Part shown: positions 37,382 to 38,620 of the stretch, one piece after another
Position numbering within the stretch: position 1 is the stretch's first letter
Layout: every line of letters starts with the position of its first letter
From: a virus
Strand: one strand, 5' to 3'
UHGV virus genome: UHGV-0030196
DNA: 61,145 bases
Translations under genes and position numbers: made by a program
Notes under the pieces: generated by a model
The model's input: only the letters and a program-made list of their open reading frames with translations
What the model was told of the DNA's origin: nothing
The model's database searches: none

Positions 37382-37886
37382 ACTGTGCCGGGTACGTCTC
37401 CGGCGAGGGCTTCCACCTCCGTATGCTTTTCGGCGCACCGCGCCCTGGCTGCAATTCAGTAACAGGGGATGCATAACCCTGGCTTCCAGCGTGATTAGCG
37501 CCTTCAGCATGACGGGATATACCCGTAACCAACAAACTTTCCCATATACCATCAAGCAATGGCTGTTACGCGGGAGGGACGTAACAGGTAAGGGCGCTGA
37601 CCAGAAAGACCTGACCCTTCTCATTCATCTGGTTAATCACACCAGCGCCCTTGCCTGTTATGCCTCCCCGTTCCCTAATACACAGACGGGGACACTCTGC
37701 GGTCGATTTTTTGACGGGGGACGACTCATACCCCGTGGCGTCAGGCTTCTTAGGCCGCTACCATCATCAGATCATCGTTTGCATTTACTTTAATGGTCGG
37801 GTTCTAAACCGCCGCAAAGTCGCTAACCATGACGAAAACCCTAAAAAAGCCCACCCGAAGATGGGCAAATACGCTACATCTCACAC

Positions 37887-37965
37887 AAGAAAGAAGCCGA
37901 CTGCCTGAGCTGGATTCACTTTCAAATGCCCGCAGAAAGGGATCACAAGTCGGCTTCTTTCTTGA
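37887..37965. repeat. 16-bp perfect inverted repeat (aagaaagaagccgact / agtcggcttctttctt) around a ~46-nt loop
   Basis: Direct reading; inside the 1.2-kb ORF-free segment. Confidence 0.4.
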
Positions 37966-38451
37966 TGCGGCACTCTCTCCGCCCGTCACCGCTCTGTCTC
38001 GGTTGTCGCGTTTGCCACGCCAGCCGTAACGAGGTTTAAAGTCTTTGCACGTTTCCATCACTCGACTGCCGTCTGTGGCTGTTCGTTGCAGCGGGGGTGC
38101 CTCCCCCTGGGGATATCCCCGGCCTTACCCCATTCTTTCAAGACACAATGCAAGGCCGCATCCGCATAGGTGCATTACCGCAACATTAAGGAGACTTAGG
38201 GCAAAAGGTAATCGCCACAAAAAAATCCCTATGCCTCCTTAATGTTGAGGATGTGCATTGATGATGATTCGATGCGGCGAGTCCCGTTACTCTCTGCCGG
38301 ACCATCATCAATGAACATCTTAAAAAGACCTTCCGTGGCTCAACATGTCTTGTTGTTTACTCCGTAAAGTGCTCTCTCTGAAACCACTTTACGCACTAAA
38401 CCTGCTGAACTTTGGCTTGCTCGGTGCCAAAGCGAGTCCCTGTATGCATGT

Positions 38452-38464
38452 AATTTTCTAACAC
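38452..38464. promoter_or_regulatory. Operator-like motif AATTTTCTAACAC
   Basis: Family member. Confidence 0.45.
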
Positions 38465-38603
38465 TTTAATTTGTTATTTGCTGGTGGGCGAACAACAACC
38501 AATAAGTGACTATCAAGCCCAGCAAGCGAAATGTGGCAACGCTCCACCAGCAAGGAAAATTCTAAGTTAAGTTACTCTCACAATCAATATGTTCGTTTGA
38601 TGA

Positions 38604-38620
38604 AATTAGATTTCTAACAT
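38604..38620. promoter_or_regulatory. Operator-like motif AATTAGATTTCTAACAT
   Basis: Family member. Confidence 0.5.

Follow-up and report, generated by a model that had tools for sequence, protein, structure and literature searches.

As far as identity and layout are concerned, the segment at positions 37390-38620 of the viral genome UHGV-0030196 (a stretch of 61,145 nucleotides (nt), hereafter the window) is probably the non-coding, repressor-controlled leader, made up of RNA cassettes, one of which is derived from transfer-messenger RNA (tmRNA). A first-pass annotation of this DNA had proposed that a repressor-controlled promoter drives a structured non-coding RNA and/or the adjoining cluster of transfer RNA (tRNA) genes, and this proposal is supported by homology to the corresponding leader of phage P1 and by comparative data. 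It had missed an intrinsic terminator on the minus strand (37866-37840), a tmRNA-like tag frame, and the organization of the region, in which separable RNA cassettes are joined as a mosaic. As the leader of a repressor-controlled tRNA/ban-type operon, the segment is a known element, and the cassette inside it appears to be a new form of a known type.

Over its entire length the segment is 94.6% identical to phage D6. P1, P7, SJ46, and other P1-family phages match at about 90% identity, restricted to 37390-37870, and the segment is present in 106 plasmid records at a coverage of at least 80%. Because of these D6, P1-family, and plasmid matches, the window can be assigned to a D6-like phage-plasmid of the P1 family. 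In the P1 annotation, the counterpart stretch is bordered on one side by the bivalent C1 operator Op72ab and the promoter P1ban, and on the other by tRNA-Asn and tRNA-Thr, beyond which come tciABC, tRNA-Ile, and ban. The synteny of the window agrees with that of the P1 ban-operon leader: besides the sequence identity, tRNAs lie directly downstream, and homologues of tciA and tciB are annotated downstream in the D6 record, which carries no annotation over the segment itself.

The P1 ban leader and the window share one or more operator sites at the stop codon of the upstream gene (putative in the window), a promoter directed at the tRNAs, the same terminator, the tmRNA-like cassette, and a boundary hairpin. 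They differ in several respects. The repeated motif of the window differs from the P1 C1 consensus. Upstream of the terminator, about 690 nt of D6-lineage leader stand where P1 has about 170 nt, a pmgS-like gene takes the place of dmt on the upstream side, and the tRNA set is Arg-Tyr-Thr instead of Asn-Thr. A ban homologue is not annotated downstream in the stretch of the D6 record that was looked at.

A sigma-70-type promoter is predicted on the minus strand at 38587-38559 (-35 TTGATT, 17-nt spacer, -10 TAGAAT), with transcription starting near 38552. It is the only promoter-like site within 36000-39000. For comparative analysis, 23 distinct D6-like variants were aligned on the transcribed (minus) strand. 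The hexamers are unchanged in these variants (TAAAAT in L005 and L021) and the spacer is divergent, which is the pattern expected for a working promoter. The two operator-like motifs noted in the first-pass annotation are placed on either side of this promoter. O1 is at 38611-38624 on the plus strand (core TTTCTAACATTTTA, with flank AAATTAGA...), and O2 is at 38455-38468 on the same strand (TTTCTAACACTTTA), about +85 to +97 from the predicted start. The underlying motif, TTTCTAACAYTTTA, has five matches in the window with up to two mismatches against 1.1 expected, a number reached in 0 of 100 shuffles, and the five sites with their flanks agree on roughly AAATTAGNTTTCTAACATNTTA. The core TGTTAGAAA is invariant at O1 and O2 in the 23 variants, in surroundings that are only about 75-80% identical. 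O1 and the stop codon of the pmgS-like gene upstream overlap, and Op72ab of P1 is analogously placed at the end of dmt. The centre-to-centre distance between O1 and O2 is 156 bp, which would equal about 15 helical turns. The three further motif copies, at 12151-12164 (minus), 17011-17024 (plus), and 39863-39876 (plus), all lie in intergenic gaps, one of them just upstream of the start of the pmgS-like gene. Their orientation relative to the flanking genes is variable, as with the asymmetric C1 operators of P1.

The tmRNA-like cassette comprises about 180 nt of the minus strand (37841-37665). A 5' motif (GGGUUUUCG..GCGACUUUGCGG) and a resume context (AAAGUAAAU) are followed by a tag frame at 37782-37750, GCA AAC GAU GAU CUG AUG AUG GUA GCG GCC UAA, which reads ANDDLMMVAA*. 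As read from the sequence, no in-frame AUG, GUG, or UUG occurs upstream of the tag before the preceding stop codon. The features shared with tmRNA are a resume context of the form UAAAU, then GCAAACGA, and a tag without a start codon of the type A-N-D/E-...-hydrophobic-A-A, with a hydrophobic ...AA end typical of degradation tags (ANDENYALAA in E. coli). In addition, a small helix (GGC-CUAAGAA-GCC) presents the stop codon in its loop, as helix 5 of tmRNA does, H-type pseudoknots follow the tag, and tRNA genes are nearby. Pseudoknot A is formed by ACGGGG/CCCCGU plus GUCG/CGAC, and pseudoknot B by pairing of the loop CCCCGU with a downstream ACGGGG.

The closest tmRNA counterpart is the coding piece of the permuted, two-piece tmRNAs of beta-proteobacteria and phages (RF04321, RF01850). 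The Rfam model tmRNA_permuted (RF04321) aligns over the resume region and tag with 22.8 bits in the window and 39.6 bits in the Klebsiella locus L076, and in the latter the alignment to the beta_tmRNA model (RF01850) reaches the stop codon and the first post-tag helix with 19.4 bits. ARAGORN at 80% thresholds reports the tag ANDDLMMVAA* for the window and P1 alike. The resume context is of the type found in permuted phage and beta-proteobacterial tmRNAs, unlike that of E. coli ssrA. The 16-mer AAGTAAATGCAAACGA is common to the cassette and more than 120 viral contigs, most with classic tags such as ANDNFAPQDFALAA or ANDSVYALAA, and most of the contigs bearing it are called permuted tmRNA genes by ARAGORN with default settings. 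Genuine permuted genes have the 3' tRNA half (...GGACGCGGGUUCGACUCCCGCCAGGUCCACCA) upstream, then a spacer and the 5' tRNA half (GGGCCUGCCAUGGUUUCGAC...). In the enterobacterial group of the window, the 5' half is only faintly discernible (GUUUUCG..GCGAC) and the 3' half is absent.

A covariance model (R1) was built from 40 representatives of the cassette family. In the window it has a single significant match, the cassette itself (37852-37641, minus strand, 150 bits), and it scores 213 bits on a copy from a lambdoid prophage. On genuine permuted tmRNAs the match is confined to the resume and tag stretch, and E. coli ssrA is not matched.

Tag and helix statistics were collected from 88 distinct family sequences. 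They contain 19 tag variants, all exactly 10 codons long and of the form A-N-(D/E)-(D/E)-x-x-(L/M)-x-(A/V)-A. The variation is synonymous in type and concentrated at wobble positions: codon 1 is GCA or GCT, codon 2 is AAC or AAT, codon 7 is CUG, UUG, or AUG, and codon 10 is GCC (54 sequences), GCT (13), GCG (19), or GCA (1). The stop codon is TAA in 87 sequences and TAG in one. An overlapping frame initiated by AUG is 5, 7, and 9 amino acids (aa) long in three tag variants, according to a reading by hand and not a computation. Beyond the P1 family, the most widespread piece is 37750-37839, which also matches Klebsiella phage-plasmids with the tag versions ANDDVVLMAA and ANDNVVLMAA. A motif specific to the subgroup recovers over 120 additional viral contigs, as well as four genomes of bacteria.

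The helices of the cassette vary in a similarly ordered manner, and the covariation analysis that had been suggested for related elements shows that its pseudoknots covary. Because MAFFT columns were out of register for small helices between subfamilies, the helix tables were scripted per sequence. The stop codon is always in the loop of the small hairpin, the stem of which covaries (GGC/GCC, UAGCC/GGCUA, GCU/AGC). Stem 1 of pseudoknot A occurs as ACGGGG/CCCCGU, GCAAGG/CCUUGU, GUGAGG/CCUCAU, or GCGCGG/CCGUGU, and its loop-to-downstream stem as GUCG/CGAC, CCGA/UCGG, CCAG/CUGG, or CCAA/UUGG. The formal pair counter, applied within the cassette to pseudoknot A only, found changes on both sides in 7 of 10 pairs and 95.7% of cells paired, compared with at most 61% when the strands were slid. 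Its covariation was 0.46 versus 0.19 in shuffles, and none of the 500 shuffles attained it. In pseudoknot B, the loop pairing covaries too (CCCCGU/ACGGGG, GCCCUG/CAGGGC, GGCGGG/CCCGCC, and others).

The cassette is widely distributed. It is present in 660 of 5,426 complete E. coli genomes (about 12%), in 582 plasmid and 140 chromosomal places, over which RefSeq has either no annotation or a 'hypothetical protein'. It also occurs in 758 of 50,697 phage records, where it is never annotated as RNA. The hosts of these phages include Salmonella (270), Escherichia (226), Klebsiella (107), Erwinia (50), Shigella (33), and others, and the phage types range from approximately 157-kb Vi01-like and 88-kb Felix-O1-like phages to phages of about 70 kb and 47 kb and the lambdoid HK633, with virulent groups among them. 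Since its variation is codon-patterned, its tag is fixed at 10 codons, its pseudoknots covary, and its carriers are very different phage types, these comparisons of sequences indicate that the cassette family is under purifying selection.

Upstream of the cassette, the transcript would begin with a 5'-closing stem at 38478-38553 (UUGCUGGUGG / CCACCAGCAA, helix 1, 96.5% of cells paired) that contains an inner hairpin. It would continue into the D6-lineage leader (37965-38440, minus strand), which has no counterpart in P1 and consists of a series of hairpins and a near-invariant block of about 200 nt. The hairpins lie at 38432-38410, 38393-38363, 38313-38256, 38247-38181, and, for the GC-rich hairpins seen in the first pass, 38120-38093. 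The block (38170-37965) is almost unchanged even among variants that are about 80% identical around it. The perfect inverted repeat described earlier is present, with arms of 17 bp (37886-37902 / 37948-37964) and 45 nt between them, not 16 bp and a 46-nt loop. Further long but imperfect hairpins can be drawn at 37573-37669, 38157-38271, 38245-38324, and 38355-38401. In formal pair counts over eight candidate helices, 95.6% of cells are paired compared with at most 52% with the 3' partners slid, and changes on both sides occur in only seven pairs, each from one lineage. In seven variants from a single lineage, the 17-bp hairpin has two compensatory pairs (A-U to U-A and G-C to A-U) and one disrupted pair. 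The D6-half hairpins are thus conserved, with no more than moderate support as RNA structure, and together with the strongly covarying cassette they bear out the earlier proposal of a structured RNA.

The leader part ends at an intrinsic terminator (37866-37840, minus strand) with a 7-bp stem, a UUCG loop, and six U residues (GCCCAUC-UUCG-GGUGGGC + UUUUUU), which is conserved in P1, D6, and other relatives. The leader is modular: P1 is without the whole 37871-38550 part, L004-type plasmids have an additional P1-type leader of about 105 nt beside the terminator, and L005 is without 37961-38084. Beyond the cassette, the final leader part (37382-37572) is conserved with P1 save for a variable patch at 37520-37575, and its 3' end, ...GGUGGAAGCCCUCGCCGGAGACGUACCCGGCACAGU, abuts tRNA-Arg. 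In L078, an IncY P1-like E. coli plasmid (NZ_CP020936; positions 3376-4545 of the locus), the stretch with similarity to the conserved leader is directly preceded, as transcription runs, by a gene for a TnpB-family RNA-guided endonuclease.

Two further observations concern the D6-lineage leader. A perfect Shine-Dalgarno-like AAGGAGG (38235-38242, minus sense) is located in an arm of a conserved hairpin, paired to CUCCUU (38181-38193), and no start codon lies at normal range. A core of about 100 nt within the conserved block (37974-38083) is also found in a Pantoea plasmid and in a highly conserved element of about 350 nt, poor in open reading frames (ORFs), of phages of about 40 kb. The loci sharing it include L010-L013, L022, L047, and others, and the pattern matches 64 viral contigs. 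In the Klebsiella phage Kp4865-1 (genus Uetakevirus), the element is placed between the terminase and portal genes, beside a Gp49-family gene. Neither Rfam nor R1 has a match in the element or the shared core, and the view of both (core 38083-37974) as diverged tmRNA-like relatives was rejected for now, with R1 silent at E<=10.

Several points weigh against the reading of the segment as a repressor-controlled leader with a tmRNA-derived cassette. With default settings, ARAGORN calls no tmRNA in the window, in P1, or in the family members tested. A scan of the 61-kb window for canonical T-arms returns only the five tRNAs, and neither an acceptor stem nor CCA can be recognised in the cassette. 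No tmRNA model of Rfam (RF00023, RF04321, RF01849-51) reaches its gathering score, which is 47 bits for RF04321 and 84 bits for RF01850, and RF00023 gives 6.5 bits in the window. A direct role in trans-translation can therefore be entertained only with low confidence. With regard to regulation, no site with up to three mismatches to the 17-bp asymmetric consensus of the P1 C1 operator (ATTGCTCTAATAAATTT) occurs in the window, and we infer the assignment of the motif copies to a D6-type repressor only from their position, repetition, and conservation. Without a P1-type operator in the window, the copies, if they are operators, would belong to a different immunity type. The terminator separates the promoter from the cassette and the tRNAs, so that downstream expression requires read-through or a second promoter, neither of which was identified for the part beyond the terminator. 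Finally, independent compensatory events in the D6-specific hairpins are few, and recombination between arms could also keep inverted repeats matched.

The missing half of the tmRNA deserves closer description. The cassette has no identifiable acceptor stem that could hold a recognisable G3-U70 pair, and no equivalent of PK1 was identified in it. At relaxed thresholds, the positions that ARAGORN assigns to the tRNA halves disagree between the window and P1. Several relatives carry a near-consensus promoter of their own (TTGACA-17-TAGATT), the end of which is about 12-14 nt before GUUUUCG, and with an RNA start predicted about 5 nt before GUUUUCG neither an acceptor strand nor an acceptor piece further upstream would fit. 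A complete tmRNA, whether permuted or standard, was rejected, since no consistent acceptor piece was found by ARAGORN at default or relaxed thresholds, by the T-arm scan of the whole window, or by eye in relatives that bear a promoter. Lacking a tRNA-like domain, the cassette stands outside the tmRNA family as defined and is best described as a derivative that keeps the message half.

In some subfamilies, tRNA-like pieces were observed about 250-300 nt downstream. They have an acceptor-type stem, a D-arm and/or a canonical T-arm, and a long insert that replaces the anticodon arm. Examples are L254, L274, and L251 (about 300 nt past the tag), L076 (2695-2711), and L226 (about 2040-2095), the last of which ends ...AAACGGCUCCA (CCA). 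ARAGORN calls none of these pieces as tRNA. They look self-contained, and a partnership with the cassette is only a candidate.

The whole region from 35.7 to 38.6 kb, with the segment in it, is organised as a series of RNA cassettes, among them the tRNAs and the tmRNA-like RNA, with long hairpins of one type between them. As stated in the first-pass annotation, the edge of the segment is formed by a tRNA-Arg gene (TCT anticodon, 37305-37381, minus strand). It is the first of five tRNAs and is followed on the same strand by tRNA-Tyr, tRNA-Thr, tRNA-Ser, and tRNA-Met, down to 36120. The boundary hairpin at 37669-37573 (minus strand, CAUAACAGGCAAGGGCGCUG ... CAGCGCCCUUACCUGUUACG) carries a compensatory change from T-A to C-G between the window and P1. 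The same type recurs at 37131-37045 and near 35935-35888. The hairpin at 37045-37131 (minus strand, CACAACAGGUAAGGGUA ... UACCCUUACCGUUGUG) lies between tRNA-Thr and tRNA-Ser, and its loop has a T-arm-like GAGGGUUCGAAUCCCU that is called neither by ARAGORN nor by the Rfam tRNA model. Between tRNA-Met and tRNA-Ser (36378-36515, minus strand), the Rfam model of the gammaproteobacterial small RNA STnc100 has a sub-threshold match of 40.8 bits against a gathering score of 47, and the match recurs in P1 (L001, 3142-3261) at 33.4 bits. This stretch may be another conserved RNA cassette of the array. Directly behind the leader, the window, L004, and L008 have Arg-Tyr-Thr, whereas L005, L007, and, by annotation, D6 and P1 have Asn-Thr, and L003 has Asn-His. 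The tRNA cassettes have evidently been swapped behind a constant leader.

The boundary hairpin connects the array to lambdoid phages. In a lambdoid prophage of E. coli O26:H11, the cassette lies between the Q gene with t_R' and the holin gene, and is flanked by the hairpin CACAACAGGUAAGAGCAUU ... AGUGCUCUUUCCGUUGUG. Lambda has its own hairpin of this sequence at 44787-44862, just after t_R', of the same type as those of the window at 37669-37573 and 37131-37045. No tmRNA-like cassette is present in lambda 44400-45300. The two settings differ, as the late leader of lambda, between t_R' and gene S, lies behind a promoter antiterminated by Q, whereas the cassettes of the window would be part of a P1-family leader that is early and under repressor control. 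A related arrangement is that of the RNA 'morons' of lambdoid phages (tRNA genes upstream of stx). StxS, the P_R'-t_R' small RNA of Stx phages, was also considered and was rejected, as its published description concerns a different RNA.

Among other explanations of the segment, it could be supposed that the cassette is an inert fossil, i.e., a fragment of ssrA acquired by an ancestral phage, for example through imprecise excision from an attachment site in a tmRNA gene, and that the remainder is a non-functional recombination spacer. The absence of a tRNA-like domain and the mosaic nature of the region (the P1 gap, the P1-type insert, and the L005 gap) are in keeping with this, and fragments of ssrA in prophages have been ascribed to imprecise excision (PMC9004378). 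The fragment is, however, the tag-coding middle of a tmRNA and not the 3' end that is duplicated by attachment sites, its resume context is not E. coli ssrA-like, and R1 is silent on E. coli ssrA. The signs of purifying selection, namely the codon pattern, the fixed tag length, and covariation across P1-like, lambdoid, Vi01-like, and Felix-O1-like carriers, also speak against a fossil, which we consider unlikely.

The inverted repeats could instead act as DNA, for example as sites of recombination or inversion, as protein-binding palindromes, or as joints for cassette exchange. In locus L043 (a viral contig, 513-1277), the 47 bp between the 13-bp repeats CAACATTAAGGAG / CTCCTTAATGTTG are exactly inverted, the arrangement being the exact reverse complement of that in the window (38181-38247), D6, and 21 other variants. 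This hairpin is evidently able to recombine as DNA. In addition, CACAAC.../...GUUGUG hairpins are found at joints where phage cassettes differ, and symmetric changes in the arms would also be expected from a palindromic site or from gene conversion. A role in DNA leaves the asymmetric pseudoknot pairings and the tag frame unexplained, the inversion is a single case among 23 variants, and such a role is compatible with one in RNA and not exclusive of it. As the full explanation of the segment, we regard it as quite unlikely.

Another alternative is that the main product of the promoter is a DicF-type antisense small RNA that inhibits cell division and ends at the terminator. The sole annotation inside the P1 counterpart stretch is a 'dicF-like region' that terminates at the conserved terminator, and the annotation of the downstream tciA and tciB mentions a possible link to the inhibition of cell division. 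By eye, the plus strand at 38355-38378 also resembles part of DicF. This likeness is antisense to the predicted transcript and lies in a hairpin (helix 3) without compensatory support. The Rfam model RF00039 has no match in 35500-39500 (E<=1), in 37370-38650 (E<=10), or in the P1 locus L001 (E<=1). Apart from the terminator, the P1 'dicF-like' sequence is missing from the window and D6 and is kept only in L004-type relatives. An RNA of this kind is therefore very improbable as the main product. The Rfam scan that had been suggested as a check found only tRNAs above threshold, in 35500-39500 and in the segment at permissive E-values. Weak matches to a microRNA, MicA, STnc240, and YrlA were dismissed, as they reflect hairpin shapes.

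Finally, the segment could encode one or more small proteins, such as the phrog_27020 ORF or an 85-aa ORF on the minus strand (37804-38061), and owe its conservation to them. The absence of any ORF above about 85 aa had been reported. This size was slightly too low, as mechanical ORFs reach 100 aa (37491-37793, plus strand, GTG start), followed by one of 86 aa and two of 85 aa. A conserved protein-coding frame was looked for by homology and was not found. The 100-aa ORF is the only one with a library match (phrog_27020, E = 2.7e-43), and some deposited records mark a 'hypothetical protein' here. No function is known for the PHROG family, and the ORF that matches it belongs to this same conserved DNA. 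In 28 of 46 distinct variants, P1 included, the frame is reduced to 14-24 codons. As for the 85-aa ORF, a 2-nt deletion shifts its frame in L008, L005 has lost most of it, and in the Pantoea and Klebsiella relatives it is out of frame or interrupted by a stop. Indels that are not multiples of three are frequent among relatives, and Pfam has no match for the ORFs of the segment. With broken frames and no Pfam match, coding potential was rejected for all ORFs of at least 65 aa, and conservation at the protein level is extremely improbable.

For the leader with its RNA cassettes, the following course can be proposed. In a lysogen, a D6-type C1 repressor bound to O1 and O2 would keep the promoter off. 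When repression is lifted, RNA polymerase would start at TTGATT/TAGAAT and transcribe the minus strand of a lytic-cycle operon. The first 700 nt or so would fold as the lineage-specific leader, and some transcripts would end at the intrinsic terminator. Read-through would produce the tmRNA-derived RNA of about 180 nt, followed by the lambda-type hairpin, the leader piece, tRNA-Arg, tRNA-Tyr, and tRNA-Thr, further cassettes, and tRNA-Ser and tRNA-Met. This chain would presumably be cut by tRNA-processing enzymes and at the long hairpins. The cassette RNA keeps the features on which a ribosome relies when it resumes translation on tmRNA, and it lacks the tRNA-like domain that accepts alanine. 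In the reading that we prefer, it might then act on host trans-translation during lytic growth, either as a coding piece that needs an acceptor partner or as a competitor of tmRNA. Any specific activity of the cassette can be put forward only tentatively.

The codon-like variation of the tag suggests that the tag frame is decoded. As it has no start codon, decoding would imply trans-translation, yet the acceptor domain is absent. A bolder and rather doubtful idea is that enterobacterial phages encode an unrecognised 'headless' tmRNA, a message-domain RNA of about 170 nt that is decoded and rescues stalled host ribosomes with a tag chosen by the phage. Its carriers may include P1, D6, SSU5-like phage-plasmids, lambdoid prophages, and virulent Vi01-like and Felix-O1-like phages. 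Such an RNA might team up with a separate tRNA-like piece without an anticodon arm, as found nearby in several phages, or it might hijack the charged tmRNA-SmpB complex of the host.

A partial precedent exists in mycobacteriophage DS6A, which carries a tmRNA relative consisting of the tRNA-like domain only that is reported to inhibit the host tmRNA when expressed in E. coli (PMC4131195, PMC11915505). The DS6A RNA and the cassette are both partial tmRNAs borne by phages. The former keeps the tRNA-like half without a tag frame, whereas the cassette is the converse and has the message half only. In surveys of RefSeq phages, ssrA was found only in mycobacteriophages, and Bacillus phage G and DS6A were named from outside the dataset (PMC4131195). 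Phage tmRNAs number 79 in a later database, which covers standard, permuted, intron, and no-tag forms (PMC11915505), and a tmRNA detectable by ARAGORN is present in about 2.3% of phage genomes (PMC9004378). The literature searched yielded canonical phage tmRNAs and the DS6A case only; no tmRNA relative consisting of the message half only was found, and none in P1. The genome papers of P1 and D6 were outside this search, and an earlier mention is possible.

P1 and lambda-like phages have been heavily studied, yet in the records examined this leader either has no annotation, is labelled a 'dicF-like region', or is covered by spurious hypothetical proteins. Because annotation pipelines for tmRNA and other non-coding RNAs are keyed to the tRNA-like domain, they miss such a class of relatives. 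The present analysis provides a working map of putative operators, promoter, terminator, and cassette boundaries for the early tRNA operon of D6-type phage-plasmids. The post-t_R' hairpin of lambda marks cassette joints in unrelated phage groups. A tmRNA relative that is maintained by selection and consists of the message half only would point to a new route by which phages interfere with, or re-programme, ribosome rescue and tagging.

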